64,000 nucleotides of DNA from Chiloscyllium plagiosum (taxonomy: Eukaryota), in the NCBI RefSeq assembly GCF_004010195.1, contig NC_057746.1, positions 7,811,697 through 7,875,696 on the forward strand, given 5' to 3'. This document shows, piece after piece, positions 5,040-56,110 of this stretch. Both the position numbers and the translations under genes were made by a program. Each line of letters begins with the position of its first letter. Positions within the stretch are counted from its first letter, which is position 1. The notes beneath the pieces were generated by a model. That model saw only the letters and a program-made list of their open reading frames with translations, was not told the DNA's origin and ran no database searches.

Positions 5040-6030
5040 CCAAAGGTAGATGAGGGCAGAGCGATAGCCATCGTCTACATGAACTTTAGAAAGATCTTTG
5101 ACAAGATATCACATGGGTAGGTTATTGAGGAAGGTAAAATCTCACGGGGAGAAAGTGAGGACTGCAGATGCTGGAGATCAAAGTCGAGATTGCAGTTCTG
5201 GAAAAGCACAGCAGGTCAGGCAGCATCCGAGGAGTAAGACAGTAGATGTTTCGGGCATAAGCCCTTCATCAAGAATGATGTGGGGCTTATGCCCGAAACG
5301 TTGATTCTCCTGCTCCTCAGATGCTGTTTGACCAGCTGTGCTTTTCAAGCACTATACTCTGGACTCTAAATTTCACAGGATCCAGGAGAGACAGCAAATT
5401 GGATCCCAAATTGGTTTGATGGTAGACGGTAGAGGGTGGTGGGAGGCGATTGTTTTTCAAACTTCAGGCCTGTGACCAGCCGTGTCCCACAGGTTCTGGG
5501 TCCACTGTTATTTATCATTTATGACAATGAATTGGATGGGAATTCCAGAGGTACCATTAGTAATTTTGTGGATGGCCCCAAGATTGAAGGTACAGTGGGC
5601 AGAGAAGAAGGTTATCTGGAAATGCAGCGAGATCTTCAACAACTGGGCCATTGGACTGAGGAGTGGCAGATTGAGAATAATGTTGATTCGTGAAGAGTGT
5701 TGCATGTTGGCAGAACTTACATAGTCAATGGTAGGGCCCTGGGGAGTGTGACAGAAGAGTTTTTTCAACTGTCAGATCATTGAGTATTTGGATTGTGATG
5801 TCTTTTTGCAGCTGTAAAAGACATTGGTGAGGTCACTCTTTGAATACTACATGCGGTTCTGGTCGCCTTACTATATGAAGGATATTATTAAACTGGAAAG
5901 AGTACAAAACAGATTTACTAGCATGCTGGCTGGACTAGAAGGTTTGCGTTATAAGGAGAGGTTAAATGGGCTGCGACTTTTCTTCCCTGGAGAATGAAAG
6001 ACTGAGGGGTGACCTTGCAGAGGTCTATAA
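5040..6030 (+). mobile_element. CR1 LINE ORF2 (RT) fragment, degenerate
   Basis: DEGRAIAIVYMNF, RPVTSRVPQ-VLGPLLFIIY, RLRGDLAEVYK motifs. Confidence 0.9.
5148..5368. mobile_element. Fold-back Penelope-terminus element inserted in a CR1
   Basis: Inverted arms around CCCTTCATCAAGAATGATG; flanked by an imperfect duplication AAATCTCACGG / AAATTTCACAGG. Confidence 0.8.
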
Positions 6031-12712: not shown

Positions 12713-12851
12713 AGAAAGGACTTGTACAATTAATGGTAAGGCCTCTGGTAGCTTTCTTGAACGGAGACACCGAAAGATTCAGGCATTGTTCCTTAATGTT
12801 GTGTCACAGGTAGACAGGATGGTTAAGAAGATTGTTAACATGCCTGCTTTC

Positions 12852-15038
12852 TGAATGCCCGGTTCCTGCATGAATGGTGAAAGAATCGAATCCTTCCACC
12901 ATGTGTCAGTTACAGACCACTAGTCAACAACCCACAAGCCAGGGACACAGCCAGACAGAACGGATTCAGGATGATCCAGGTAATGATTCCAGACGCTCAC
13001 AACAGACTTCACAAATACAGACAAGAAATTGCGCGTCAAAAATCGTTAATTTCGAAAACCACCAATCAGGAATGGACCCAGACCATAGACCAGGCCGTCA
13101 CCATAGTACAGAACAGGACCACACACCGCAAAAAAACGGCACTAAAAGAAAAAATGGCCAAACTAACACACAACAGAGAGGACACCACAACACACACCTG
13201 GGTTAGAAACCTCTCCCACAGATAGCTCACAGATACGGAAAGAACAATACTGGCCAAGGGACTCAACTACAACCACAGGGACGCCAAGGCAGTAGACTTC
13301 CTAGCGGCACTAGAATGTACACTCAGGAACAATGGACTGACAGAAGAGACACAACAAACAGTGAGACAAAGTACCGTACCCCGATAACAAGGAAAATACA
13401 AACACATAACCTCAACACCAAGGACAGGGAAGCATTAAAAACACTAAGAAACGATAAGAACATAATCATACTACCAGCAGACAAAGGCAGAATGACGGTC
13501 ATCCTGGACAAAGCAGACGACATCCAAAAAGCACAACAACTACTTGCAGATACCAACACGTACCAAAAGAGGGAGTTTGACCTCACCCCACAGCTCATAG
13601 GATAAACAACACACTGAGGAATCTACAAAAAGACGGACAGATAACCAGGCTTGACCTACAAAGAATGAAACCTGAAAGTAACAACACCCCCAGATTCTAT
13701 GTACTACCTAAAGTGCACAAACCAGACATCCCACTCAGACTCATAGTATCATTACCAGGGACACCATCACACAAACTGGCTAAAGAACTACAGCAGAAAC
13801 TGAAACACCTGATCAGCGGATTCAGACAGTCTATACAATCAACACAGGAATTCTTGGACATCATCAGAAATATACACNNNNNNATTGCTGTGCTCTTCCA
13901 GCACCACTGATCCAGAATCTGGTTTCCAGTATCTGCAGTCATTGTTTTTATCCCAAACAGGATAGGGAATCTATCAACAAAGACGGCATACTCAAACTAC
14001 TGGACCTGTGCCTCACAACACACTTCACAATCAACATCCAAATATATTAAACCTATCAACAAAGACGGCATACTCAAACTACTGGACCTGTGCCTCACAA
14101 CACACTTCACAATCAACATCCAAATATATGAACAAATCAGCGGCACACCCATGGGCTCACACATCTCTGGACTCATAGCAGAAGCGGTAATGCAAGGATT
14201 AGAACAAACAGTCTTACCACAAATTCAACCCAAACTCTGGGTCAGATATGTGGATGACATCTTTGTAATCATTAAAAACACAGAAATAGAGAACACAAAC
14301 CGGATCATCAACGCCACACTCACAGGAATCCGATTCACGAGAGAGGAAGAAAAGGACAACCAACTCCCATTCCTAGACGTGATGGTACAGAGAACACCTA
14401 ACGGAGAATTCACCACAAAGGTATACAGGAAAGCCACACACACAGAACACGTCCTGAACTACGACAGCAACCACCCCAACACACACAAAAGAAGTTGCAT
14501 CAAGACACTATTCAAAAGGGCCACAAAACACTGCAGCACACCAGAACTGCAAAAGGAGGAAGAAGAATACCTATACAATGCATTCGCCAAAAATGGATAC
14601 CCGCGCAATTTCATCAACAGATGCCTAAGGGAAAGACAACGGAACGAGGAAATGCCGCAACCCAAAGGACTAGCCACACTGCCATACGTCAAGAGCATTT
14701 CCGAACTGACAGCCAGACTACTGCGACCACTAGGACTCATAACAGCACATAAACCAACAGCCACTCTCAGACAACAACTCACCAGAACGAAGGACCCAAT
14801 ACCCAGCATGAGCAAAACCGCCACTGCAGCGGACAGCTGGAACTGACAACCGGAAGCGGCAGATTCAAACCACTACAACTGCCGAAGGAAACACCACAGA
14901 AGCGCTTCACAGGAGGCTCCCAAGCACTGAGAATGTCACCTAGACAGGGGACGAAACGTCTGCAACACAAATTCCCAGCTCGGTGAACAGAACTACAGCA
15001 ACGAGCACCCGAGCTACAAATCTTCTCACAAACTTTGA
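12852..15038 (+). mobile_element. Penelope-like element (Poseidon-type) with RT, GIY-YIG deleted, 12-bp TSD
   Basis: ILPADKGR, PRFYVLPKVHKPDIPLRLIV, GTPMGS, WVRYVDD, LPFLDV, VYRKATHT motifs. TSD ATGCCTGCTTTC at 12840-12851 and 15039-15050. Assembly gap at 13878-13883. Confidence 0.92.
14924..14963 (+). ncRNA. Minimal type I hammerhead ribozyme motif (one core mismatch)
   Basis: GCA-CTGAGAA-TGTCACCTAGACAGGGGAC-GAAAC-GTC-TGC: stem I GCA/TGC, stem II, palindromic ACGT in place of stem III. Confidence 0.65.
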
Positions 15039-15479
15039 ATGCCTGCTTTCATTGCTCAGACCATTGAGTGTAGGAGTTGCACGTCATGTTGAAGTTGTAC
15101 AGGACATTGATGAGGCCACTTTTGGAGTACTGTGTATAGTTTGAGTCAACCTGCTTTGTGAAGCATGTTATCAAGTTGGAGACGGTTCTGCAAAGATTTA
15201 CGAGGATGGCGTCTGAAGTGGAGGATTTGTCTTATACAAACAGGCAGGATAGGCTGGGACTGTTTTGACTGGAGTAAAGAAGATTGAGGGGTGACATTTT
15301 GAAGATTTACAAAATCGTGAGGGACATAGATAAGGTGAATAGCAAAGGTCTTTTTCCTAGGACGGTGGAGTTCAAAACTAGGCACCATATTTTTAAGAAA
15401 AAAAAGTTTTAAAAAGGACATATTTATTTCTAATTTATTTCTAAATACAGACAGCGGCTCATGTGCGGAATGAATTTGA

Positions 15480-25011: not shown

Positions 25012-25178
25012 TTCGAAAAGTGTGGTGCTGGAAAAGTACAGCAGGTCAGGGAGCATCCGAGGAGCAGGAGAATCGACATTTAGTTAATGTCAAGGGCTTA
25101 TGCCTGAAACGTTGACTCTCCTGCTCCTCGGATGCTGCGTGACCTGCTGTGCTTTTCCAGCTGCACGCTCTCGGTTCT
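25012..25178. mobile_element. Fold-back Penelope-terminus element, degenerate centre
   Basis: GCTGGAAAAGTACAGCAGGTCA...GAGGAGCAGGAGA mirrored by TCTCCTGCTCCTC...TGACCTGCTGTGCTTTTCCAGC. Confidence 0.8.
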
Positions 25179-25660
25179 GTCACCATCATGAGCAGTTCTC
25201 ACTGTCTCCTCCGATTTAGGACCATGTTGGACTTGTTTGAACAGGGATTAAATAAATCGTGTTTGGGTAATCTGAGATTAATTGAGGGTAAAGAAGCCTG
25301 TGACGAAGCTGAGCCATTGATTTTTGCCTTTTTCTGGCAGACCCTGTTCTGAGCTCATGGACAAACCTATTTGTCCTTCTCAAGGAGTGTTTGAAAGAAC
25401 TTCTCAGCACTGTAATTTCTGAGCATGCAGTGTCTGCCAAGACCACGGAAGGAACTGCTCACGTCATGAGCATTGACTACAAAATCCAAAATTCAATTAG
25501 AGATGATATGAACATTGCAATTACAATCATTTATTTTCACTCCAAGGACAGTGAGTGGGTTATGAATGACAGGAGAAAGCTAACTGAAGGAACAATGTGG
25601 CAGATATATTTGAAAAATAAACACACAACAGCGTCTCCATGGAATCCCATAAGAAAGAAA

Positions 25661-26980
25661 CCAGTCAGACGTCCCAACAAATCCCCTTGTGCGGTAAATA
25701 AGCTCCTCATGAACCTCTGATACAGCCTGGGCCAGAAGCAGTACATCACAGCCATCAGTGCCTCTGCTCTGACACAAAGGAGACAAAAGACTCAATCCAC
25801 ACCAGCCTCGAACTATCACTATCCCGCTGAAGGAATGTTTCTCAGGCAATGCCTCACAGCCGATCTGATGATGACCAAGATACCTGAGTCACAGAGTGCC
25901 CACAGCATCTGTTCAACCCTGAAACCGTACCCAGCCAACAGCTTTGTGGAAACCATTGGCCTCTAGACTAGGAAATCCCAGGACTAGCTTAATGAGAATA
26001 AGCAGGAGATCCAGGATCTCCGAGACTGCAAACGTGAGGTATTCGTAAATCAGCAGCTCCACCATAACTCCATCTAAAGGAAACAAGCGGAGACACAACT
26101 GAAGGCCGAGATGTAACAAAGAAGCTGTGACTTAAAGGTGGGTGGAGAGAGTCAGTAGGAGAGTCAGCGAGTCACTGACAGCCACAATGTGTGCGGCTTC
26201 TTCAGCTCAATCAAAGCCATCTCCAGCCCGAGTACCCAGAGAGTGACCCCACTGAGAACCAAACACAGAGAGTCCCTCATCAAAGACCGAGAGGCGGTCA
26301 GCACTCGCTGGGGAGAGCACTTCGTGGGCCTCCTCCAACAATTCACAGCCTTCAGCACAAGTGTTCCTGACACCATCCTACAACACACTACAAACTACCA
26401 TCTCAGCAAACCTCCAATCCACCCTATGGGCAAAAACACCTCCAACAACAGAACAACAGGGCCACTAGCATAGACGGAATCCACGGGGAATGAGTCAAGA
26501 ATGTCTCTCCGATGAGAGACATTCTTGACATGAATCCACCTCACCATCCTTTTCTGGAATGAAAGGTGCATGCTGGGAGATGTCAGAGACGCCTTTATTG
26601 TGACCAACTTCAAGAAGGAAAGCATGTCCGATCATACAGAGAGATTTCCAATGTCCGTCATGGAAAAGACCATCGTGAGAATCCTCCTCAGTGCCTCCAC
26701 CCAGTGACTGAATAGCTCCTTCCGAGACTACAGCGGGAGCTTCTGCCCCTCAAAAGGCAGAATATCCAGGATTGTCAGTGTGTGACAAATCAAGGCAGAG
26801 TGCCGGGAACAGCAGCAACAGCACATGGCCTTCTTCAATCTTCAAGCTTTTGACTTTATGAGGGATTATGGGATATCTTCCGCAAATGGGGATGCCCACA
26901 AGAATTCTGTCACCATTCTCCACCCGCTTCACAATGACTTCCAAGCTGTGGTCTTCACCAACGCATTCGCCACTTACATG
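25661..26980 (+). mobile_element. RTE (BovB-like) LINE relic, part of segmental duplicate A
   Basis: DSHNVCGFFSSIKAISSPSTQRVTPLR..LIKDREAVSTRWGEHF; DVRDAFIVTNFKK. Confidence 0.75.
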
Positions 26981-27699
26981 AGCAGGGTGTGACAGAAACA
27001 ACTAAGGAATTCTACAACCAACATATTAGATCTAAGCCCTGCAGTCGTATTACATTCAGTCGTGAATGATGGTAAACAATTAAACAACTCATTGCAGGAG
27101 GAGGTTCCACATATATCTGCAATAATCAACAACGGGTGAGCCCAGTAAATCATTGCAAAGATCAGGCTGAACCCATTCACTGAACTCTTCAAACTGAAAT
27201 GCTGATGGACTGATCCATCTTGGCCTCCTCTGGTGGGTAAAAGTTGGGACCTTGACAACATCCCAGCAATGGGACAGATGTCATGTGCTCCAGAACATAC
27301 TGTACCCCTGGGCAAGCAGTTTCTGCTGAGCTACAGCACTGATATCTACCTGAGAGAGTGGAAATGTGCCCACGTATGTGCAGTGCATAAATAACAGGAC
27401 AAAGACAATTTGGCGAATTCCCATCTCATCAATATGATATCAATAATGAAAATGTGAATGAAAGCTTCATCAACAGTGCTATGGAGGAGCACCTACATAC
27501 CAACAATCTGCTCAGTGACACCACTCAACTCCTGACTTCACTCCAGCCTCAGACCAAACATGAACAAAAGGACCTGAATTCCAGAACTAAGCAAATGGGT
27601 GGATTTATTTCTTTGGTAATCAAGTGGCTATGATCAAATGATTTATGATCTTCAGTCACGGCACTTTCCCCTTAATGATAAATACAATATTGAAAATAT

Positions 27700-28250
27700 C
27701 TGCATAAAATTTCAAGTTTGACTCACAAATGTTAGTTTGGATCATGCTGGACATCAATGTAGATACACAATTCTGTTTGGACACTGGGATGGTGGAATTG
27801 ACATGCACTGGATTTTGTTGATGACGGATTCAATGCAAGATGCCATGTAATCCATCACTTTTCTAAGACCTACAATAAGGATCTGCTCCAAAGTTGAGAG
27901 TTACGAAGTTTATGTGGCACACTAGATGTCATCAACATGGACGAACTTACCAGACATGGTCAATGGCAGCTCATTTGCACACATGGTGAAAATTGCACTG
28001 ACCCTTGAGCTAGGCCATTGGCCATGTCTGCTCCATGTATTTCACCCTTGATCAAGGACGATTCTAAATTGTCTGTTGTCAGAAAATGTTTGCATAACTC
28101 TCCAGATCCAGTTTGGGATCTGTCTGGAGATATTTAGGAGCCGGTCATTCTGTATTGGAGTTGCCAATGTGATCTAGCAACACTATGTTTATATTCCTGC
28201 CTTTTCAATCGTATTTTTGATGTATATGGTAGTGCAAAGATCATGTGTTT
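27700..28250 (-). mobile_element. Vingi/Ingi-like RT relic (duplicate at about 50130-50620, plus strand)
   Basis: NGLAQGSV..FTMCANELPLTMSGKFVHVDDI*CAT..STLEQIL resembles NGLPQGSV..NDLP..KFIYADDICCA. Confidence 0.5.
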
Positions 28251-28599
28251 ACTCGTATGACCATGAATCAGCTGTTTACTGCTGTTATTTAACTGAGCAA
28301 TAATCAGCTGATTACTAACATTACGAAATTTAGCATTAATTAGGTGTACATTCTGATTATTGAAGTGAATAATCTTCAAATGCAAAGAAAAAATCATTTA
28401 TTTTGGTTCGATTTTAAGATACAAATAAATAAAATGGGTTAACTCTTTTTTGTAAAAAACTTAAAACTGACCTGCAGTATATTTCTCGAAGACTAAGGAA
28501 CAATCGAAAATAGTCACACTCACAGAATTCCACTTTCCAGACAATGTCCCAGATAACACTATAGCCATCTCAGGACAGGCCCTGCCCACTGGCAGAACA

Positions 28600-31500
28600 G
28601 AGGCATCTCACTACGTATAATAACCACTTCAATCCCCTTGATAGGATTTTAGCATGTAACTCACTCCTTGGTCTCTGTTATTCAACACATAAAACCCACC
28701 TCAACCCCTTGATAGGATTCAATCATACAACTCACTGTGGGGTCTCTGTTATTCTACATATAAAAACCTCAAACCCATTGATAGGATTCCAATACGTAAT
28801 TCACTCCCGTGTCTCTGTTATTCTACATATAAAAAAACACCTCAAACCTGTGGATATGATTCCAATATGTAACTCACTCCTATATATCGTTTACGTTCAC
28901 CACCTCACACCCCTTGATTAGATTCCTGACTGTACCTCACTCCCAAGTTTCAATTATTCCAGACATAATACACCTCAAACCCTACAGTTCGATCTCAGTT
29001 TGTAACTCACACTTGGGCATTTGTTTTGAGAAATAAACCCTGATAAATCGATAAATCTAATCTGTCACCCATTCATGTATATCTGTTACTCCATACATAA
29101 ACCACATCGAAACCTTGTGTAGATTCCTGTCTGTATCTGGTATTCCATATATATATACCACCCCGAACCTCTTCATTAGATTCCAGTCTGTAACTCACTC
29201 GCATATATCTGTTATTCCATACATAACTCACCTCAGACACCTCAATTAGATTCCAGTGTGTAACTCAATCCTGTGTATTTGTTATTCTATATGTATAAAC
29301 CAACACAACCTCCTCGATCAGATTCTAGTCTGCAACTCACACATGGGTGTCTGTTATTCCATATAAAAACCAACCCAACCTCTTCGATTTGATTCCAATC
29401 TACAATTAATTTCAGATAATTGTTCCTCAACATAAAACCTACTTCAGACACTTCAATTACATCTCTTTTTTTAACTCACTCCCAGGTATCTATTATTCTG
29501 TATATAACCCACTTCAAATCCCTCAATTAGTTTCCAGTTTTTAACTCATACTTGGGTATTTTATTTTCATATAAATACAACCTGATTCTTCAATTAGATA
29601 CTAATCTGTAACTCATTCGTATATATCTGTTATTCCATATAATTACCAACCCGACCCCGAAATTAGATTCCAATGTCTAGCACACTCCTGCATATCCATT
29701 ATTCCATATATAAACCACCCCGAATTCTTCAATTAGATTCTAGTCTGTAACTTACTCCTGGGTATCTGTTATTGAGTATCTGGTATTCCATATATATATA
29801 CCACCCCGAACCTCTTCATTAGATTCCAGTCTGTAACTCACTCGCATATATCTGTTATTCCATACATAACTCACCTCAGAAACCTCAATTAGATTCCAGT
29901 GTGTAACTCAATCCTGTGTATTTGTTATTCTATATATATAAACCAACACAACCTCCTCGATCAGATTCTAGTCTGCAACTCACACCTGGGTGTCTGTTAT
30001 TCCATATATAAACCAACCCAACCTCTTCGATTTGATTCCAATCTGCAATTAATTTCAGATAATTGTTCCTCAACATAAAACCTACTTCAGACACTTCAAT
30101 TACATCTCTTTTTTTAACTCACTCCCAGGTATCTATTATTCTGTATATAACCCACTTCAAATCCCTCAATTAGTTTCCAGTTTTTAACTCATACTTGGGT
30201 ATTTTATTTTCATATAAATACAACCTGATTCTTCAATTAGATACTAATCTGTAACTCATTCGTATATATCTGTTATTCCATATAATTACCAACCCGACCC
30301 CGAAATTAGATTCCAATGTCTAGCACACTCCTGCATATCCATTATTCCATATATAAACCACCCCGAATTCTTCAATTAGATTCTAGTCTGTAACTTACTC
30401 CTGGGTATCTGTTATTCCATATATAAACAAACCCAATCTTCTCAATCAGATTCTAGTCTGGAACTCACTCCCGCGTATCTGTTATTCCATATATAAACCA
30501 ACCAATCGTTCTCGATCAGATTCCAGTCTGGAACTTACTCCTGTGTATTTGTTATTCTATATATAAAGCAACACAACCTCCTCGATTAGAATCTAGTCTG
30601 CAACTTATTCCTAGGTGTCTGTTATTCCATGTATAAACCAACCCAACCTCTTTGATTAGATTCTAACCTGTAACTCATTTCGGATATCGGTTCTTCAACA
30701 TAAAACCCACTTCAGACACTTCAATTAGATCTCAGTTTGTAACTCGCTCCCAGGTATCTATTATTTTGTATATAACCCACTTCAAATCCCTCTGTTAGTT
30801 TCCAGTTTTTAACTCATACTTGGGTATTTTATTTTTATATAAATACGACCTGAATCTTCAATTAGATACTAATCTGTAACTCATTTGTGTATATCTGTTA
30901 TTCTATATATTAACTAACCCATCCCCAGAAATTAGATTCCAGCGTGTAGCACGCTCCTGCATATCTATTATTCCATATATAAACCATCCCGAATACCTTA
31001 ATTCGATTCTAGTCTGTAACTCATTCCTGGGTATCTGTTATTCCATGTATAAACGAACCCAATCTACTCAATCAGATTATAATTGGAACTCAGCCCAGTG
31101 TATATGTAATTCCATATTTAAACCAAACCAACCTCCTCGATCAGATTCCAGTTTGTAATTCCTCCTGAGTATCTGCTATTCTATATATAAGAGGTAAAAA
31201 CAATGACTGCAGATGCTGGAAACCAGATTCTGGATTAGTGTTGCTGGAAGAGCACAGCAGCAACCAACCCACCCTCCTCAATCAAATACTAGTCTATAAC
31301 TCACTCCTGGGTATCTGTTATTCCGTATATAAACGAACCCAACCTCCTCGATCAGATTCCAATCTGTAACCCATTTCAGGTATTCGTTCTTCAACGTATA
31401 ACACACCTCAGACACTTCAATAAGATTCCAGTTTGTAAGTAGCTCCAAGGCATCTAATATTCTGTGCATAATGCACCTAAAATCCCTCATTTAGTTTCCA

Positions 31501-32310
31501 TTTTGCATCTCATTTTTGGTATTTTATTTTTATATAAGTAAAGTTCCGATTCATCAATTAGATTCCAATCTGTAACTCATTCATGTATACCCGTTATTCC
31601 ATATATGAACCAAGTCGATCCCGAAATTAGATTCCAGCCTGTCGGACACTCCTGGGTATAAAGTATTCCATACATAAACCACCCCGAATCCCTCGATTAG
31701 ATTCTAGTTTGTAACTGACTCCTGAGTATCTGTCATTCTACAGGTAAACCACCCCAAATCTTCGCATTTAAATTCCACTCTGTTACTTACTCTTGGGTCT
31801 GTGCTATTCCATATGTAAAGCACCCCGAATAGCTCAATTAAATTCCAATTTGTAATTCACTCCCATATCTCTGCGACTCTGTACATGAACCATCCCAAAC
31901 TTTTAAATTGGATTCCAGTCTGCAACTCACTCCAGGGTATCTTGTATTCTGTCTATAAAGCTCTCGATGAGATTTAAATCTGTAATTCACTTCCATGTAT
32001 CTATCACACTAAATGGAAACTACTCTGCATCCCTCATTAAGATTCCTACCTCTAACTCACTCCCATGCTTCAGTGTCTCTGCCCATCAACCGCAATGAAT
32101 TTCTCGATGAGATTCCAGTCAGTAACTCATTCTTGGGAATCAGTTCTTCTCAATATAAACTGCCCTGAACTTTTTGATTATATTCCAGTCTGTAAGTCCC
32201 TCCCGGGGATCTGTTCTTCTCAATATAAACCATACTTCACTGTTCGATGATATTCCAGTCTGTAACTCACTCCTGGGTATCTGTCATTCGATATAAGAAC
32301 ACTCCGATTT
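28600..32310. repeat. Satellite array, about 59-bp monomer, with higher-order structure
   Basis: Consensus near ATTAGATTCCAGTCTGTAACTCACTCCTGGGTATCTGTTATTCCATATATAAACCACCCCGAACCTCTTC; 29133-29775 is repeated at 29776-30418. Confidence 0.95.
31191..31260 (-). mobile_element. Penelope 3'-terminal fragment inserted in the satellite
   Basis: GAGGTAAAAACAATGACTGCAGATGCTGG...GAGCACAGCAG interrupts a monomer after TATATATAA. Confidence 0.8.
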
Positions 32311-44399: not shown

Positions 44400-46100
44400 A
44401 CCCACTGAGCCCCTAACATCTCCTGATAGTATCCACAACAACACCCAATTCATGGCCTTCCCCTTACTCTGAAGTTGAATTGTCTGGTATCGGTCGCCGG
44501 CTTCATAACCAACATCCTGGACCAACCTCAATAAGTGGCTGTCCCGGGAAACAGTAATATTAATGAAACACGCTCCTGACCGCAAGGAGAAACTGGCCCC
44601 ATTTCCTCAATATGTCCAGAGGACAGTATAGATGGACAATGCCACTCCTCAGGACGTGTTTGCTTTTTGTTGATTGATCCTGCTACCTGCAGAAGTTAGC
44701 AATTGGCAAGGATAGATGGGCCAGGGTGGTGCAGGGCCTGTCCGCAGATACGTGGACTCGAAGGAAAGATTCCCCAACAATGATGTCCTGGTAGACCCCT
44801 CAATCCAGCCGTTAGAACGAGCCTTACACCAACCTGTAAACATTGGTGATGGACTGGGAGTCCCAAGCCATGGGAGTCTGGAGATTATTAGGAATGGTTT
44901 GTGGCCTATTACAAAACATTTGCAGGTGATCAAGCCTTTAATCTTGAAGCTGACTCACCTTTGTCTAATGTTATGTTTTTGCAATGTGGTGTCACTGATA
45001 TGATCCAGACAACCAATATGAACTGGTCCAAGAATTCCCAGTCACTAATGAGGTGAGTGGTGGTCTTCTATTGGAATGGCCAGACCGAGACTGAATCCCG
45101 ATACAAGTTACAAGCCGTTAGAACGAGCCTTACACCAACCTGTAAACATTGGTGATGGACTGGGAGTCCCAAGCCATGGGAGTCTGGAGATTATTAGGAA
45201 TGGTTTGTGGCCTATTACAAAACATTTGCAGGTGATCAAGCCTTTAATCTTGAAGCTGACTCACCTTTGTTCAACGTTATGCTTTTGCAATGTATTCCTT
45301 CTGATGTCGTTGATATAACCCAGACAAACAATATGAACTGGTCCAAGAATTCCCAGTCACTAATGAGGTGAGTGGTGGTCTTCTATTGAAATGGCCAGAC
45401 CGAGACTGAATCCCGATACAAGTTACAGAAACAAAAGAAACCTCGTGAGCCATATATCCCGTGTGCCAACCCCGACTGGATTTACTGAGGCCTGCATACC
45501 CACCCTTGGAACGTGCAGCCCTCCACTCCCTCAGTTCCAACCCCAACCTCACTATCAAACCAGCAGACAAGGGAGGCGCGGTAGTAGTTTGGCGCTCCGA
45601 CCGTTATACCGCTGAAGCTAAACGCCAGCTCGCAGACACCTCCTCCTACTGCCCTCTTGACCATGACCCCATCTCCCACCACCAAACCATCATCTCCCAG
45701 ATCATCCATAACCTCATCACCTCAGGGGATCTCCCATCCACCGCCTCCAACCTTATAGTCCCACAACCTCGCACCGCCCATTTCTACCTCCTGCCCAAAA
45801 TCCACAAAATCGACCCATTGTCTCAGCCTGCTTCTGCCCCACCGAACTCATCTCTGCATACCTCAGATCCCTGGCCAGCGACCATTGCTGAGCAACGCTT
45901 TCCTGAGGGGATCCTGGAAACGGGAACAGGCCAGCCCCAGTACTACACCTTTGGGACAGGGAACATGTCAGCTCATCTCCAAGGGATGAATGGCAGCCCC
46001 TTGCTTTAACTGTGGGAGCTATGGGCACTGGGGAGAAAAATGTCCTTATCTTTCGAGCTGGAGCTAACTCAGGGATCGACAGGCTTGCATCCTAGCTAAA
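44400..46100 (+). mobile_element. Endogenous retrovirus gag relic (capsid-like region and nucleocapsid knuckle)
   Basis: Largely collinear frame MKHAPDRKEKLAPF..LERALHQPVNI..MFLQC..NMNWSKN..FYW; CX2CX4HX4C knuckle CFNCGSYGHWGEKC at 46002-46043. Confidence 0.6.
45460..45868 (+). mobile_element. Neptune-like Penelope RT N-terminal fragment inserted in the gag relic
   Basis: ERAALHSL..NLTIKPADKGGAVVVW..PRTAHFYLLPKIHK. Confidence 0.85.
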
Positions 46101-46384
46101 GGAGAATCTGCAAATATGTACCAACTCTTGTGCTTTTGGAATGGCCCACAGTTTCGGAGCCTTGTGGGAACACAGGTGATTGAACTTCCACAAATAATTT
46201 CCACGGGGTAGCTTATTAATAATGCTGGGTTTGTCCATCCAGTCTGGCAGTTATCAAATGTTCAGCTCACGCTGAGACAACTGATGCAGTCTCCAAAGGA
46301 AATTAGGGGTTGGTGCAAACTTCAGGCCACATTGGGTTCCCAGTAAAACTCGGTTAGAAGCAATATAAGGCTGGGGTATACCAG

Positions 46385-46512
46385 GAGAAAGTGAGGTCTG
46401 CAGATGCTGGAGATCAGAGCTGGAAATGTGTTGCTGGAAAAGCGCAGCAGGTCAGGCAGCATCCAGGGAACAGGAGAATCGACGTTTCGGGCATAAGCCC
46501 TTCTTCAGGAAT
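46385..46512 (-). mobile_element. Single-arm Penelope terminus with an intact hammerhead core, 14-bp TSD
   Basis: Minus strand reads ATTC-CTGAAGA-AGGGCTTATGCCC-GAAAC-GTC-GATT. CTGGGGTATACCAG at 46371-46384 and 46520-46533. Confidence 0.85.
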
Positions 46513-47093
46513 ACCAGACCTGGGGTATACCAGACCTGGGTAAGATACAGAAACCACTGTGGGGGGAGACTCTGCTGAACTGCACAATCAATGGACAATG
46601 TAAGGCTGGGTATGCCAGACCTGGGTAAGATACGGAAATCACGGCGGGGGGGGGGGGAGACCCTGTTGAACAGCAGAAACAGTGGACTCAAATGGTGTGC
46701 TCCGTTGTCACTCAAACCAAGCTGTGGGTGACCCCTGTGGGGCAAGTTTGTGCTGCTTCTTTGTTCCTACCCTCATTGATTCTGTGCATAACTGGACACG
46801 CTTGGGCAAGGAGTGAATGGTTAATACTTTATTACAAAACTGGAACACAGTCGAATTACGTACGAACGGATAATGGCACCTCTTTCACTTGCAGCCACAA
46901 GGCCTTGCCCTGGCTCCTATTATCCTGCACTGGGAGTTGCTATCGCGAGGATGTGGTTCCCCTTTTACCACACGTACTCATTCAGATTTGAACGACCTTC
47001 ACCTCGTACCAAAAGAACGCTAAGATACACTGAGCGACTCTTTGCCATTATCTCTCCACCACCCCCCCCCCCCCCCCACTTTATGAAAGGGGT

Positions 47094-47795
47094 CGGCTAA
47101 TAAAGGAAGTTAGAATCATAGAACATAGAATATTACAGTGCAGCACAGGCCCTTTATGGAACCGCTCGTCTAACAAAGGAATTTAGACAAATACAATATA
47201 GAATATCACAGCGCAGTTCAGGTCATTTATGGAACCAATTAGCTGATAAAGGAAACGAGATTCATACAGCATAGAACATTATAGTACAGTACTGGTCTTA
47301 TAAGGAACCGCTCGGCTCAGATATGAAGTTACACTCATAGAACATAGAACATTACAGCCCAGTACAGGCCCTTTATAGAATCGTTCAGCAAATAAAAGAA
47401 GTTAGAGTAACACGATATAAACATTACCGTGCAGTACAGACATTTTATGCAACTAATCGGCTAATAAAGGAAGTTAGACTGATACAACGTAGAACACTAC
47501 AGCGCAGTACAGGTCATTTATTGAACCGCTCGGCTATGAAATGATGTTACACGAATACAACAGAAACAATATAACGCAATACAGGCCCAATATGTAACCA
47601 CTCGGCTAATGAAGGATGTTAGATTCATACAATATAGTGCATTACCTGGCAGTACAGAACATTTCTGGAACCGCTTGGCTAATAAAGGAATTTAAACTAA
47701 TACAACATAGAATATCATGGCGCAGTGAATGTTGTTTATGGAACCGCTCGGCGAATAAATAAAGTTACACTCAAAGAACATAGAACATTAAGCAC
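47094..47795. repeat. 73-bp tandem array, about 10 units, containing a CR1 3' tail
   Basis: Unit approximately CGGCTAATAAAGGAAGTTAGANTCATAGAACATAGAACATTACAGCGCAGTACAGGCCCTTTATGGAACCGCT. Confidence 0.92.
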
Positions 47796-48027
47796 ATGAC
47801 ATCTTCCTTGCCATTTCAATGTTAAAGAATGGACAGATGAGACGTTAATTGACAACATCAGAGTTGCCCTCATTTTTCTGTGTAAAAAGTGCCTGGGTAC
47901 TTTTTCACATTTTCGGTCCATGCCTGTGCTGTTGCTCCATCAGAACACTTTGGCTCGGCAGGCGACAGGTTTTCGATATTTAAAGTTGTCAGGATCCACA
48001 AACTTTTCAATATCCAGTGCCTCCTGT

Positions 48028-48321: not shown

Positions 48322-51300
48322 ACAATAATTCCATAATATCAGGAAGAGTAAATTAAATTGGCTGTAGACTGGGATTTGTGAACATGGGTACCTCAGGAGG
48401 AGGTTAAAATGGATCAACGTCTTCGTATTTTTGGTTGAAGATTGTTGCAAATGCTTCAGCTTTATCTTTTGCACTGATGTGCTGGACTCCCCTTTAAATG
48501 AGTGTTTAATTTTTAGAGAGCAACCTCCTTACCCAGTGGTTTAATTGTCCACCAACGTTTATGACTAAATGTGCCAGAGAGTAGATCTGTAGAATTTAGA
48601 AGTTATGCAAAAACAGAAATTACTGTTGGAACACGGCAGGTCTGGCAGCATGAGTGGAGAGAAAGCAGAGTCTCATTGATTGTGTGATCACTTAGCTCTG
48701 TCCATCACTTGTTGCAGACAAACGTCGTCCTGTTTTGTAGTTTCACCAGGTTGGAACCTCATATATTGGTTTTCAGTGCTGTCTGTATGTCCTGTTGTAC
48801 TCTTTATTAAACCAGTCTGAAGGCTTCCTATTCATATACTGTACTCACCCAGATGCCTTTTCAATGTTTTAATTGTACCAGCTTCCACCACAGAGACATA
48901 GGGTCATCCAGCATGTAAACAGACCCTTTCATGCAAACAGTCCAAGCCGAACAGAATTCCAAACGAAACTGCTCCCACTGCCTGCTCCTGACCCATATCC
49001 CTACAACCCTTCCTATTCATGTATCAATCTAAAAATCTTTGTTTCATATTTACATCACCCTGTGCATGAAGGAATTGCCCCTCAGGTCGCTTTGAAATCT
49101 TTCCCTTCTCACTTTAAAACCATGCCCTCTAGTTTTTATACTATCCATGCTCCTCATGATTTTATGAATCTGAATAAATTCACTCCTAACCCTCTGTCAC
49201 CCCCAGAGTAAAAACGTTCCAGACTATCCAATCTCTCCCTGTAACACAAACCCTCCAGTCAGATATGTTGGGAAACAGTCTATGATTGTTTGTGCAAGAT
49301 ACAAATCAGATGCAGCAGATGGCCCGCTGAACTTCATGGACAATTCGTCATAAGTTGGTCGATCTGTTTGAAGGCTGCCCCATTTCACACAGAGACAGTG
49401 ACACACCACATAATGCAGTGTTTATAAAATATGCGGCAGGCAGATTTGTGACAATGACTTTTGGAATGTCCCAACTCAGTCAGCAGGTTGTGTTGCTGAG
49501 CCTGTCTTGGTGATGCACACTGAAACCATCCACACAGAGTCCATTCTCTGTCATTTCCACCTTCAATGTTGTGTTCAAACAGGGAAATTCGAGCGATGTG
49601 TAATTAATAATCAGCAGAATGTTTCCGTGCCCGTGTTTAACATGATGCCATGAGGATTCGTCGGGAGACGCGTCAATGCTGATCACTTCCAGCATCCCCC
49701 AGTCCCTCCAACGCCTTGAGTGCATCCCATGGGATTGCTATCTCTGCTGGCTCTGACCTGCCAGTGAGGCAGGACCTGCCCTGAGATGATCATAATGTTG
49801 TCTGGGACATTGGCTAGAAAGTGGGATTCTGTGAGCATGACGATGTTCGATTGTTGCTGGATTAGGCTGTGAGTAATATACTATAGGTCAGGTTTACGTT
49901 TTATACAATAAAGAGTTCACCCCTCTTTATTTCTTTGAATCTTAAAAGTAAACCAAAATAAATGATTTATTTTCAGTTGAAGATTATTCACTTCAATAAT
50001 CAGAATGCATACCTAATTATTGCTAAATTTAGTAACTGTAGTGAATAGCTGATTATTGTTCACTTCACTAACCGCAGTAAACAGCTGATCCATGTTCAGA
50101 TGAATAAACACATGAATATGTGCACTGCCATATACATCAAAAACATGATTGACAGTGCCTGAATCTAAATATAGTCTTGCTGGTACAAACCGGCACCTCC
50201 AGTAAAGAGTGACTTGCTCCTAAATATCTCCAAACAGCTTCCAAACTTGATCCGGCAATTAGTCTAAATTTCCTCACAACAGACAATTTAGACTCGTCCT
50301 TGAACAAGGGGGAAGTGCAAGGAACAGATTGGTCAATGGACAACGCTCAGTGCAATTTTCACCATTTTTACAATTGAGCTGCCAATGGCCATGTCTCTTA
50401 AGTTCGTCCATGTTGATGACATCTAGTGTGCCACATAAGCTTCATAATCCTCCGAGTTGGAGCAGGTCCTGATTGAAGATGTTCGAAAAGTGATGGATGA
50501 CATGGCATCTTGCATTGAATGTCTCATCAACAATATCCAGTGCATGTCAGCTCCACAATCCCAGTATCTAAACAGAATATTGCATCGACATTGATGGCCA
50601 GCATGATTCCATACTAACATTGTTGTGTGTGATTCACACTTGAAATTTTATGCAGATGCTTTCAATATTGTATTGATCATTAACAGAAAAATGTCATAAC
50701 TGAAGATCATAAATCCTTTGATCATAGCCTCTAAATTGTCTAATAAGCAAACCCATCCATTTGTTTAGTTCACTTTCAAGAATCTGATTTCCAGCATCTG
50801 CAGTCATTGTTTTTACCCCATCCATTTGTTTAGTTCACTTTCAAGAGTGAGATCTAATGACAACATAGAGCACAAATGAAGAGTCTGTATGTTGCAACCA
50901 AGATCAAATTATTATTTAGCCCAAGCACTTCGAAAATATCCAATTATTTTCACTTGAATACAAATATTCCACACCTAACTGTTTTCATGACAATAATTTA
51001 ACTATGTTTCCAAATATTCCAGATACGAGGACAGATTAAATTGATTCTATCTCGCATGTGAGTAATCTGGGCTATGAATCTCAGTGTGCATGTGCAGGAC
51101 ATAGCACATCGAACATTGCATCTCAGTACAGCCCCGTCGGCCCTCGATGTTGCGCCGACCTGTCATACCGATCTGAAGCCCATCTAACCTATACTATTCC
51201 ACGTACGTCCTTATGCTTGTCCAATGACGACTTAAACGTACTTAAAGTTGGCGAATCTACTACCGTTGCAGGCAAAGCATTCTATACCCTTACTATGCTC

Positions 51301-51489
51301 TGATATAGACTTATAATACCATTATGAAAAGCTGTGAAATAGACAGGCAGCACGCTAGAAGAACATAGCAAGCCAGGCAGCATCAGGAGGTAGAGTCGAT
51401 GATTCGGATGTAATCCTTCTTCAGGACTGGGCTATCAGGAGGTTGACATTTTTGTCTCTGATGAAGGACAGTAAAGCAGAGATACTTAC

Positions 51490-52960
51490 AGAATGGCGGT
51501 ATATTTCCAAATCAGGATGATGATTGACTTGGAATGGAATGTGTAGTGCACAGTGATCCCATGAACCTGCTGCTCGTGTCCGTCGAGATGATTGTGGGTT
51601 TTGAAGGTTTAGTTTGAGAAATTTGGTGAATTTCTGCAATGCATTTGGTCGTTGGTAAATTTTGCTGCTACTGAGAGTCAGTGGTGGAAATAAGACGGTT
51701 GTGGTGGCAATCAAATGAACTGTTTTATCCCGGATAGTGTCAAGTTTCTTGAGTGTTGTTGCAGCCTCACTCATGGCGGCAAATGGGGAGTGTTCCACCA
51801 CACTCCTGTCTTGGACGTTCCAGATGGTGGACAGATGGAAGGCTGGAAGTGCATTATTCCCTGCAGTATTCCGAGCTTCTACCCTGCCTTGTCACCACTG
51901 TATTTAAATGGATAGTACTGTTCAGTTTCTGATCAATTGTAATCTCAAGATGGCGATAGTTGAGGAATCAGCATCGGTAACCCCATTGAATTTCAAGGGA
52001 TGAATGTTTGATTCTCTGTTGTTAGAATTCATCATTGTCTGGCATTTGTGTGCCATATGTACTACTTAAGACGTTTCATCCCAAGCCTGGATATTGTCCA
52101 GGTCTCACTGAATTTGGATAAGGAGTGCTTCAGTACCTGATTTGATGCAAATTCTGCTGAACACAGCGTAATCATTCGCTAATATCCCCATGGCTGTCTC
52201 TATGATGGAGGGAGATCCATTGATGAAATTACTGAAGATGGTCAGGCCGAAGACACTCCTTTGAGAAACTCCTGCAGAGATGTACTGCAGCTGTGATGAC
52301 TGACCTCAAAGAACCTCAACTTTCTTCTTTTCTGCCAAGGACGACTCCACCTAGTGGAGCATTTTCCCGATTTCCATTGCCTCCAGTTTTGCTCAGGCTC
52401 CTTGAAGCCACACCAGGCCAAACGCAGCCTTGATGTTAAATACAGTCAGCCTCACCCCCACCTCTGCAATTCAGCTCTTTTCGTTCATGTTTGGCCTAAG
52501 GCTGGAGTGAGGTCAGGAGCTGAGTGGTGTCACTGAGCAGGTTGTTGGTATGTAGGTGCTGCTTTGTAGCACGGTTGATGAAGCTTTCCTTCACATTTGC
52601 ATGATCGATATCATATTGATGGGGTGGGAATTCGCTGGGTTGGCTTTGTCTTGTTATTTATGCACATCACATACCTGGGCACATTTCCAATTTCTGAGGT
52701 AAATGTAAGCTGGAACCGCTTGCCCAGGGGTACAGCATGTTCTGGAGCACATGTCATCTGTCCCATTGCTGGGATATTGTCAAGGCCCCAGCCTTTATCC
52801 ACGAGAGGATGCCAAGATGGATGAGCCATCAGTATTTCTGCCTGAAGAGCTTAATGAATGGCTGTCGCCTTATCTTTGCATTGATTTAATGAGCTCTCCC
52901 ATTCTTGATTATTGCAGATATACGTGGAGCCACCTCCTGCAATGAATTATTTAAATGTTC
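51490..52960 (-). mobile_element. CR1/L2-superfamily LINE RT relic (same type as 42135-43065)
   Basis: Reverse complement gives AACATCAAGGCTGCGTTTGGCCTGGTGTGG and HSPFAAMSEAATTLKKLDTIRDK. Confidence 0.75.
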
Positions 52961-53032
52961 ACAGTCATTCACGTCCGGATGTGCCAGGACTGCAGGGCTT
53001 AGATCTAATATGTTGATTGCAGAATTCCTTAG

Positions 53033-53253
53033 GAGAAAGTGAGGACTGCAGATGCTGGAGATCAGCACTGAAAAATGTGTTGCTGGAAAAGCGCAGCAGT
53101 TCAGGCAGCATCAAAGGAGCAGGAGAATCGACGTTTCGGGCATTAGCCCTTCTTCAGGAATCCTGAAGAAGGGCTCATGCCCGAAACGTCGATTCTCCTG
53201 TTCCTTGGATGCTTCCTGACCTGCTGCGCTTTTCCAGCAACACAATTTTCAGC
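53033..53253. mobile_element. Near-perfect fold-back Penelope-terminus element, hammerhead core on each strand, 14-15-bp TSD
   Basis: Arms meet at TTCAGGA-A-TCCTGAA (centre 53160). TSD TGCAGAATTCCTTAG at 53018-53032 and TGTAGATTCCTTAG at 53254-53267. Empty paralogous site at 27002-27016. Confidence 0.92.
53158..53195 (+). ncRNA. Minimal type I hammerhead ribozyme motif, intact core
   Basis: GAATC-CTGAAGA-A-GGGC-TCAT-GCCC-GAAAC-GTC-GATTC: 5-bp stem I, 4-bp stem II, ACGT palindrome; predicted cut after C53190. Confidence 0.75.
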
Positions 53254-53289
53254 TGTAGATTCCTTAGTTGTGTCTGTCACATCCTGCTC

Positions 53290-54723
53290 ATGCATGTTGT
53301 GAATGTGTTGGTGAAGACCACAGCTTTGAAGTCATTGTGAAGCAGGCGGAGAATGGTGACAGAATTCTGTGGGCATCCACATTTGTAAGAGATATCCCAA
53401 AGTCGCTTACAATTGACAGGGTCGACGATCTTTGTGAGATTGAATAGTATAGAGGTTGCTGCTGTTCTCGGCACACTGATTGGATTTGTCACACACTGAC
53501 AATCATGGTCATTCTACCTCTTGATGGGCGGAAGCTGCACTGAAACTCGGGAGGAGTTCTTCAGCCAATGGGAGGAGGGACTGAGGTGGATTCTCATGAC
53601 GAACATCCCCATGGCGGACAGTGGAGAATCTCGCTGTACTTCAGACCGGTCTCCGTTCTTGAATTTGGTCATAGTAACTGCATCTCTGAGATCTCCCAGC
53701 ATGTTCCCTTCATTCCAGACATGGAATGATGAGGTATATTCATGTCAAGAATTATTCTCTGCCATATTTCAGTCCTTCACCGGGGATTCCATCGGTGCCA
53801 GTGTCCTTGCTGTTGGAGGTGCTTTTGGGTGGGTTGGAGGTTTGTTGAGATGGTGGTGGGTAGTGTGTTGTGGGATGGTGTTAGGAACACTTGTGCTGAA
53901 GGCTGTGAATTGTTGGAGGAGGCCCTTGAAGTGCTCTCTCCAGCAAGTGCTGACTGCCTCTCGGTCTTTGATGAGGGACTCTCTGTGTTTGTCTCTCAGT
54001 GGGGTCACTCCCTGAGTACTCGGTCTGTAGATGGCTTTGATTATGGTGCAGAAGCTGCACACATTGTGGCTGTCAGTAAGTCACTGACTCTCCTTCTGAC
54101 TCTTTCCACCCACCATCTATTCTTTAGGTCACGGCTTCCTTATTACCCTTCAGCCTTCAGTTGTGTCTCTGCTTGTTTCCTTTAGCTGGAGTTATGGTGG
54201 AGCTGCCAGTTCAGCAACAACTCATGTTTGCAGTCTTGGAGATCCTGGATCTCTTGCTTATCTCACTGAGCCAGTCCTGGGGTTTAATGTCGAGAGGTCA
54301 TGGGTTTCCATACAGCTGCTGACTGGGAAGGGGTTTAGGGTGGACCAGATTCTGTGAGCACTCTGTGGGAGATCCTGGATCTCTTGCTTATCTCACTGAG
54401 CCAGTCCTGGGGTTTACATGTCGAGAGGTCATGGGTTTCCATACAGCTGCTGACTGGGAAGGGGTTTAGGGTGGACCAGATTCTGTGAGCACTCTGTGAC
54501 TCAGGTATCTTGGTCATCATCAAGTCGGCTGTGAGGCACTGCCTTCGGAGGATAGCCATAGTTCAAGGCTGGTGTGGAATTAGTCTTTTGTCTCCTCCAT
54601 TGTGTCTAGATTCAGGGCAGAGGCACTGACGGCTGTGATATACTGCTTTTGGCCCAGGGTGTGTCAGAGCGTTATGAGGAGCTCATTTACCTCTCAGGGG
54701 GATTTGTTGGGACGTCTGACTGG
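53290..54723 (-). mobile_element. RTE (BovB-like) LINE relic, segmental duplicate B
   Basis: IKAIYRPSTQGVTPLR..LIKDREAVSTCWREHF; GDLRDAVTMTKFKNGDRS. Confidence 0.78.
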
Positions 54724-54824
54724 TCTATTTGCTATGGTGAAGCTGATCCCATCGACACAGTGTTCTGTGTTTGTTTTCCATGAAGAAGTTGTAACTTTAA
54801 GATCTTATCCTTTAAGTTGTCCTT

Positions 54825-56110
54825 CTGCTCCTCCAGCTCCTACACCCCTCCTTATCTCTGTAACCTTCTCCACCCCCTACATCCCTCTCTATCTGTGTAA
54901 CCTCCCCAGTACTAAAACCCCTCCCTATATCTGTAACCTCCTGGAGACCTTACACCTTTCCCTTTCACTGTTACCTCCTCCAGCACCTACACCCCTCCCT
55001 ATCTCTATAAGCTCATCAGCACCAAAACTCCTCCAGATCTCTGTAACCTCATCCAGGCCATACATCCGTCACTATCTCTGTATCCTCATCCAGCTCCTAC
55101 AGCCCCTCACTATCTCTGCAACCACCTACAACCCCGACACACCTCCCGATATCTGTCACCTCCTCCAGCCCCTACATCCCTCCCTATTTCTGTAACACAC
55201 TCCAGCCAATACATCCCTCCCCGTCTCTGTAACCTCCTCCAACCCCTACACCCCTCCCTATCTCTGTAACCTCCTACAACGTCTACACACCTCACTATAT
55301 CTGTAACCTCCTCCAGCCCCTACACCTCTCCCTATCTTTGTAACCTCCTCCAGCCCCTACGCTCCTTCCTGGCTCTGTCAAGTCCTCCAGCCCTCACACC
55401 CCTTCTTTATCTTTGTAACCCCTTCCAGCCAGTACAACCCTTCCTACCTGTGTGACCTCCTCCAGCCCTCGCACTCCTCCTTGACTCTGAAACCTGCTCC
55501 AGCCCCTACGCACCTCCCTTTCTCTGTAACCTCCTCCAGCCCCTACATCCCTCCCTATCTCTGTAACTTCCTTCATCCCATTCAGCCCTCCCTATATCTG
55601 TATCCTACTCCAGACCTTACATCCCTCCCTGTCTCTGTAACACCCTCCAGCACGTACATCCCTTCCTGTCTCTGTAACCTCCTCCAGCCACTACATCCCT
55701 CCCTAGCTCTGTAACCTCCTCCACTCACAACACACCTCTCTATCACTGTAACCTCCTTCAGCCCCAAATCCCTCCCTAACTTTGTAACCTCCTCCAGCCC
55801 TTACACCCCTCCTATCTCCATTACCCCATCCAGCCCCTACACCCTTCCCTACTTCTGTAACGCTCTCCCACTCCTTCATGTTTTCTTATCTCTGTAACCA
55901 CCTCCAGCATCTACACCCCTCCCTACCGCTGCAATCTTCTCCATCCCCTAAATCGCTCACTATCCAAGTAAGTTTCGCCAGTCTCCTAAGCACCTCCCAA
56001 TCGCTGTAATCTTCTCCAGCCTCTGTCACCTCCATCAGCCCCTACATGCCTCACTATCTCTATGACCTCCTCCAGTCCCGACACTCCTCCCAATCTCTAA
56101 CTTCCTGTAA
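54825..56110. repeat. 37-bp C/T-rich minisatellite, about 35 units
   Basis: Unit approximately CTCTGTAACCTCCTCCAGCCCCTACAYCCCTCCCTAT. Confidence 0.95.

Follow-up and report, generated by a model that had tools for sequence, protein, structure and literature searches.

A head-to-head pair of Penelope-like terminal repeats in Chiloscyllium plagiosum, probably a dead by-product of element copying

A 64,000-nucleotide stretch of Chiloscyllium plagiosum DNA (hereafter the window) carries a short palindromic insert with a hammerhead ribozyme core on each strand. Is such an insert a self-propagating, non-autonomous ribozyme element, or is it a recurrent fold-back product of Penelope reverse transcription? 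A preliminary description of the sequence put forward both possibilities, and they are weighed here against the sister copies of the insert in the genome.

The insert spans positions 53033-53253 (221 bp). It lies between target-site duplications of 15 nt on the left (53018..53032, plus strand), the last 2 nt of which also match the element end, and 14 nt on the right (53254..53267, plus strand), where one base has been lost. An inverted paralogous segment (~25.6-28.6 kb vs 49.7-54.8 kb, 78-84% identity) has the target site once, on the minus strand at 27002..27016, and the duplications differ from this empty site by one substitution and the one lost base. The 15/14-bp duplication and the uninterrupted paralogous site establish a genuine insertion, as had been proposed. 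Together with the duplications seen in 48 of 56 sister hairpins, they exclude an assembly artefact at this locus only indirectly.

The best mirror axis is at 53160, where 55 of 60 positions are paired (at most 24 at any other axis), and the arms of ~93 nt are 93% complementary. The fold-back palindrome of the preliminary description was found, but it is not symmetric: the left arm bears a 35-nt extension without a partner. The predicted RNA fold of the insert has an energy of -172.3 kcal/mol (z -21.7), with none of 200 shuffles equally stable. A long hairpin RNA is expected from either strand, in line with what had been suggested.

In the numbering used here, +1 is the first arm base, which lies on the 5' side of helix I and four bases ahead of the core; the predicted ribozyme cut falls after +32. 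The unpaired 35-nt tail (53033..53067, minus strand) corresponds to element positions ~+95 to +129, and its outer end is the distal of two fixed ends. The left arm (53068..53161, sense on the minus strand) is a terminal repeat of Penelope family B that reaches +1. The right arm (53161..53253, sense on the plus strand) is a family B terminal repeat from +3 to ~+95 without the tail, and on its outer side it stops at the proximal fixed end. The two meet in a head-to-head junction at 53160..53162, which is of the commonest type (+1, +3, with a 1-nt overlap) and is also readable as a cDNA end plus one additional C. The concept of a one-sided tail comes from PMC3846280 and PMC11167929.

The intact core reported for each strand is present, starting at 53163 on the plus strand (53163..53190) and at 53157 on the minus strand (53130..53157), each with CUGAAGA, stem II and GAAACGUC. 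Stem I forms five of five pairs on the plus strand and contains a U-U mismatch on the minus strand. The cores show the features of minimal type I hammerheads, namely CUGANGA, the extra base, a stem II with G10.1-C11.1, GAAA, UH, a palindromic 15.2/16.2 and a short helix I. As an Rfam scan of the window gave no hits at the gathering score, the hammerhead assignment is based on the core motif and on PMC4209133.

Transcripts of either strand contain the antisense arm first and then a single sense core, which makes a dimer in cis impossible. Relative to the hairpin, a forced hammerhead fold is 49 and 52 kcal/mol less stable on the two strands, a predicted penalty of ~50 kcal/mol which should block the ribozyme in the hairpin RNA. 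The proposed cut after C53190 is at the right place for the motif in isolation; inside the hairpin, cleavage is predicted to be prevented. A working "double hammerhead" is likewise at odds with this modelled penalty, with the single sense core per strand and with core survival among 56 hairpins (9 keep both cores, 26 keep one and 21 have lost both). The double core is carried along passively with one type of junction.

The Penelope origin of the insert was confirmed, its arm being the 3' terminal repeat of an RT-endonuclease element. Fourteen of 20 long family B copies terminate in the arm, on the coding strand and behind a pyrimidine-rich stretch; in 12 of these the end is at ~+92 to +100 (the inner point), and the other 2 extend to the end of the tail. 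Among the remaining copies 2 more match beside gaps and 4 have no such end. A fragment of the family B reading frame in the window (45509..45808, plus strand) was used as the probe for long copies, and selection by open-frame length mostly yielded frames crossing N gaps. In 341 exact matches the tail continues into the element body and its ORF, the reading frame starting at ~+165. Since the arm terminates long copies and the tail runs into the body, the repeat is present at both the front and the end of the element RNA.

The parent protein matches the domains RVT_1 (E = 5e-8) and GIY-YIG (E = 3e-4, just under the Pfam cut-off). A CX4CxxC linker and a CxxC within the GIY-YIG motif were found in loci L075 and L064, which belong to a sister subfamily ~86-89% identical to the subfamily with the exact arm. 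By the CX2-5CxxC linker ahead of the endonuclease and the two cysteines within GIY-YIG that define Neptune/Nematis (PMC8557442), the parent is classed as an autonomous EN+ Penelope-like element of Neptune/Nematis type. The most complete RT-endonuclease frame seen is a stop-free family B frame of 893 residues with a repeated N-terminal block (L075 2603-5281, minus strand).

Two Penelope-like families, A and B, are represented by pieces in the window. Family A is degenerate (12850-15040, plus strand), is without the linker zinc finger and has a hammerhead-like repeat of its own at ~14925-15040. Its copies likewise end at two points, ~40 nt apart, and one head-to-head pair was seen among 54 arms from loci chosen for long copies. 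The family A frame (13.0-15.0 kb) was considered as the parent and rejected, as its repeat differs and no arm hit in its 30 loci was the element's own 3'-end repeat. Relatives of the insert in the window are a single-arm sister insertion that runs from the tail to +1 with its own duplication and without a mirror arm (46383..46512, minus strand), an older hairpin of a related subfamily with one tail and 80% identity (5148..5351), and a second older hairpin, also from a related subfamily, whose centre is shortened (25015..25210).

The paralogous segments at 25600-28600 and 49750-54780 form an old inverted duplicate. Around the insertion site, the segment resembles a decayed LINE, presumably RTE-like, with 70-74% matches in four other loci. 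Degenerate tandem arrays with units of ~70, 73 and 37 bp are located at 28600-32300, 47050-47800 and 54830-56100, respectively, and two of the three flank the duplicated segment.

Insertions of this kind are abundant. A DNA search with the window copy gave 3,322 candidates, and all 40 that were scored are 91-100% identical over nearly the full length. The 43-mer of the tail-arm junction has 26,474 exact matches in the genome, and 8,774 hairpins have both stem II regions exact (controls, 0 in each case). A sample of sixty 10-kb stretches chosen arbitrarily, with 568,823 called bases, contained ten young hairpins, and the estimate per 3.56-Gb genome is ~59,000 young hairpins (range, 28,000-109,000). 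They diverge by a mean of 1.9% from the majority sequence, and near-perfect hairpins in such numbers are a large potential source of double-stranded RNA.

Junctions were counted in an unbiased set of 89 insertions, anchored in the tail and blind to the centre (90 fetched among the first 100 matches listed, one duplicate dropped). All 89 are on one chromosome arm, to which the junction counts are restricted; the sets of 122 hairpins and 149 arms used below include loci biased to the window copy or to the search patterns. Fifty-six insertions are hairpins; the other 33 comprise single arms and long copies as well as insertions that are rearranged or interrupted by gaps. The duplications that flank 48 of the hairpins are 12-20 bp long (14-16 bp in 39), and none was found in 168 mismatched flank pairs. 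Among the 56 hairpins there are 53 junction types, comprising 25 overlaps, 3 blunt joints and 28 inserts, and many of the inserts were copied from the arm itself. The preliminary description had proposed that centres unique to each locus would indicate independent events; most are indeed unique, but not all, as common centres recur across subfamilies.

The outer ends of the arms fall on two fixed points 35 nt apart, one for each arm. The distal point is +129. In 52 of 56 hairpins the outer end of the tail-less arm lies at +87..+102, where long copies end as well. Exactly one tail was found in 110 of 122 hairpins and in all 10 hairpins from random DNA, which suggests one start site per nick. 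The end of the tail-less arm overlaps the duplication by at least 1 nt in 37 of 48 cases and by at least 2 nt in 29 of 48, compared to ~25% and ~6% by chance with a calling procedure that favours overlaps. Followed inward from the flanks, both strands are antisense to the element RNA, which is the pattern expected of primed cDNAs.

Among the loci fetched, there are 22 tail arms whose end lies at +70 or later. Two of these belong to long copies (L080 and L089) with an inverted piece made up of the tail and ~6 nt, which ends at +88 and is joined straight to the truncated body; this is suggestive of a second primer that met the first on one RNA, but two cases are too few. Three loci (L078 2561-2857, L179 and L263) hold hairpins with long arms that extend past +1 by 60-130 nt or more on the upstream side, which fits a start of both primers in the 3' repeat of the RNA.

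At the ribozyme front, 56 of the 136 inner ends not cut by gaps fall at -6..+4, 77 lie deeper inside, none falls from -7 to -34 and 3 lie beyond. When 149 arms exact to +2 were followed, 52 stop at +1, 31 stop at +2, 41 match 1-5 upstream bases (some of these are long copies of the sister subfamily) and 25 continue. Five inner ends are at +33, the cut site, against a mean of 1.4, and +19, +25 and +38 are equally high. The cDNAs cross the cut position of the ribozyme, which implies an uncut template.

The base after +1 in the 52 ends is C in 24, T in 22 and A in 6. Removal of the 31 explained by the mirror arm leaves C in 13, T in 4 and A in 4 (sorted by hand, without a significance test), and some of the additional Cs may be chance overlap with the partner arm. 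Copying of a cap adds an extra C. In four loci (L018, identical to L265, and L281, L284 and L206), the cDNA extends to +1 and, after a jump, continues on the first 180-440 nt of the element RNA, producing short partial tandems, with an additional base at the jump in L018 and L284. No pile-up of RNA starts was seen in 2,644 reads on the parent-type stretch (the second of two runs gave 0 reads), and 94% of these reads are host transcripts passing through copies. In D. virilis, the RNA starts further upstream, separated from helix I by 46 nt and an intron (PMC2377424, PMC4209133).

Our main reading, with a probability of roughly 0.65, is that the insert consists of two head-to-head terminal repeats of an autonomous Penelope-like element, made anew by two-primed cDNAs that were joined end to end. 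Both 3' ends of a target cut staggered by 14-16 bp would prime reverse transcription, and the two outer ends of the insert would mark the pair of sites at which reverse transcription is known to start in vitro. A single protein-RNA complex may serve both nicks, with one start site for each. Its template RNA would be uncut by the ribozyme, begin at +1 and probably be capped. The short cDNAs would be run-off products from the repeat at the RNA front, similar to "strong-stop" DNA, and host microhomology-mediated end joining would seal them at the centre. The resulting copy is predicted to be a dead end with its ribozyme locked in the hairpin, and the insert is probably a dead by-product of element copying. 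That coordinated double priming is general to Penelope-like elements, with cuts ~15 bp apart, one cDNA per fixed site and an uncut capped RNA starting at the hammerhead front, is a tentative extension to which we give slightly less than even odds.

Some observations count against the main reading. The one-tail rule needs coordination, and the start sites in vitro are equal on both strands (PMC11167929). The arms usually carry the same subfamily variants, which is also predicted by fold-back, and several inner ends extend to -3 to -6. Neither the RNA reads nor the D. virilis start site supports a start at +1, and family A yielded just one head-to-head pair among its 54 arms. In addition, the assembly is gappy in these repeats, and some centres or discordant arms may be chimeric.

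A non-autonomous hairpin element that is transcribed and copied whole by the Penelope protein would agree with the 26,474 exact 43-mer matches and with the 8,774 hairpins that match exactly in both stem II regions. It would also agree with two loci on the same chromosome, L103 and L107, which are 114 kb apart and have a common 11-nt templated centre with one base different nearby. However, this complex centre has one exact match in the genome, and its sharing may come from local copying, conversion or an assembly mix-up. Copying as a unit in the manner of a SINE or MITE requires one shared internal sequence, which the 53 junction types in 56 hairpins do not provide; a MITE is further rejected by the asymmetric ends, the 12-20-bp duplications and the retroelement parent. 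The commonest centres are spread over 2-5 subfamily haplotypes and occur in both arm orientations, apart from the symmetric one and one with three cases, and copies that have the arm difference of the window copy carry different centres. Whole-unit copying is thus very improbable, and the self-propagating element of the preliminary description is not supported; the recurrent product of Penelope reverse transcription stands. Least probable of all is that centres were uniform at insertion and were remodelled later by instability of the palindrome, or are partly assembly chimeras. Near-perfect palindromes are unstable and many N gaps lie within these repeats, but centre loss is unrelated to divergence (rho -0.07, p 0.56, n = 65), the youngest copies vary no less than the older ones, and single-arm copies halt at the same inner point without any palindrome. 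Individual junctions, haplotype-independent centres and the lack of an age trend make the junctions look as if they were made at insertion, one by one.

The published reading of head-to-head palindromes (PMC3846280) is that a single cDNA folds back and primes its own copy, or that the RNA self-primes on an antisense template. Arms that mostly have common subfamily variants fit with this, as do the short overlaps in 25 of 56 junctions, which are usable for snap-back. With the tail confined to the first cDNA, fold-back predicts that the tail arm is never the shorter one, yet the tail-less arm reaches further in 26 of 56 hairpins (tail arm longer in 25, equal in 5), and by a margin of at least 5 nt each arm is the longer one in 22 of 54. 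This contradicts the literal fold-back of one cDNA in the preliminary description. Also against it, the outer end of the second arm is the fixed point where ordinary long copies end, the commonest centres have loops of 0-1 nt, and the arms differ at +43 in 15 of 97 hairpins, in both directions, against a background of 2.2%. Position +43 is the only site above background; arms are discordant in 5 of 77 at +18 and 6 of 99 at +47, where ~47% would be expected if they were independent. Assembly chimeras could add to this discordance, and either one RNA or two sister RNAs may have been the template. The window copy was rejected as proof of two templates, as its arm differences may be private mutations. 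Taken together, fold-back appears unlikely. Somewhat less likely still is a variant with two cDNAs in which the polymerase halts at +1 because it stalls at the folded ribozyme (helix I, perhaps in a dimer of two RNAs), and not because it has reached the RNA 5' end. In favour of a stall, the boundary coincides with the 5' side of helix I, pairing as dimers has been proposed for minimal hammerheads (PMC4209133), discordant arms indicate two templates in some events, and long copies read through the boundary. The excess of non-parent C right after +1 speaks against it, and the jumps from +1 to other parts of the RNA with an additional base (L018, L284) fit run-off. An initiator-like TCATT motif at -2..+3 also counts against a stall.

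The architecture described here, with an inverted repeat, a one-sided tail, a duplication and a hammerhead, is already published, and the insert is the shortest form of this known pattern. EN+ Penelope-like insertion units have a direct pLTR, an adjacent inverted 5'-truncated pLTR, a target-site duplication and a 30-40-bp tail at one end (PMC3846280 for Pen2a_Av; PMC8557442). The inverted repeat copy, a one-end tail within this range (35 nt here) and the target duplication were all found in the insert, which also shares the head-to-head repeat, the palindrome at the junction and the hammerhead in the repeat. In contrast to the published units, it has two repeats only, no ORF and a sharp inner boundary, and most of the tail-anchored insertions (56 of 89) take this ORF-less form.

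How the inverted repeats and the tail come about is described as unexplained in PMC8557442 and PMC11167929. The junction counts argue against self-priming as the source of the inverted repeats, and if the two-primer reading is true, the run-off cDNA of the second primer would account for the inverted repeat and the one-sided tail throughout the class. In a literature search that covered few subscription papers, no publication was found of the two-primer run-off reading or of ORF-less hairpins as a main product.

Poseidon from Anolis carolinensis cuts and extends both strands in vitro on an uncut RNA template, starting at two neighbouring internal sites that delimit the tail, and its protein is a predicted dimer (PMC11167929); the available text of that paper does not describe hairpin products. 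A hammerhead near the RNA front and two start sites bounding the tail are common to both systems. Unlike Poseidon, the parent here has a CX2-5CxxC linker and an ORF at ~+165, downstream of the tail, and the genomic copies use one start site per strand.

In the lack of helix III, the palindromic 15.2/16.2, the extra base before stem II and the short helix I, the cores resemble the minimal type I hammerheads described in pLTRs (PMC4209133). Dual motifs in Schistosoma are on opposite strands, 100-700 bp apart (PMC4209133), whereas the cores here are 5 nt apart and face away from each other, which precludes a cis dimer. Non-LTR retrozymes (bioRxiv 10.64898/2026.07.22.740005) are likewise non-coding, derived from Penelope repeats, hammerhead-bearing and of high copy number. 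A retrozyme was nevertheless rejected as an identity for the insert, as it needs head-to-tail tandems with hammerheads on the same strand, and the repeats here are head-to-head, with hammerheads on opposite strands, and are not copied as a unit.

The special value of the hairpin lies only in its being a record of how Penelope-like elements copy themselves, and if the two-primer reading is true, this genome would preserve natural examples of the reaction in the tens of thousands. Twin priming of L1 is comparable in that both target strands prime reverse transcription and the inversion is sealed by microhomology. There, the internal position of the second primer varies and the two parts have no overlap, whereas both start sites are fixed in the insertions described here and both cDNAs would copy the same stretch.
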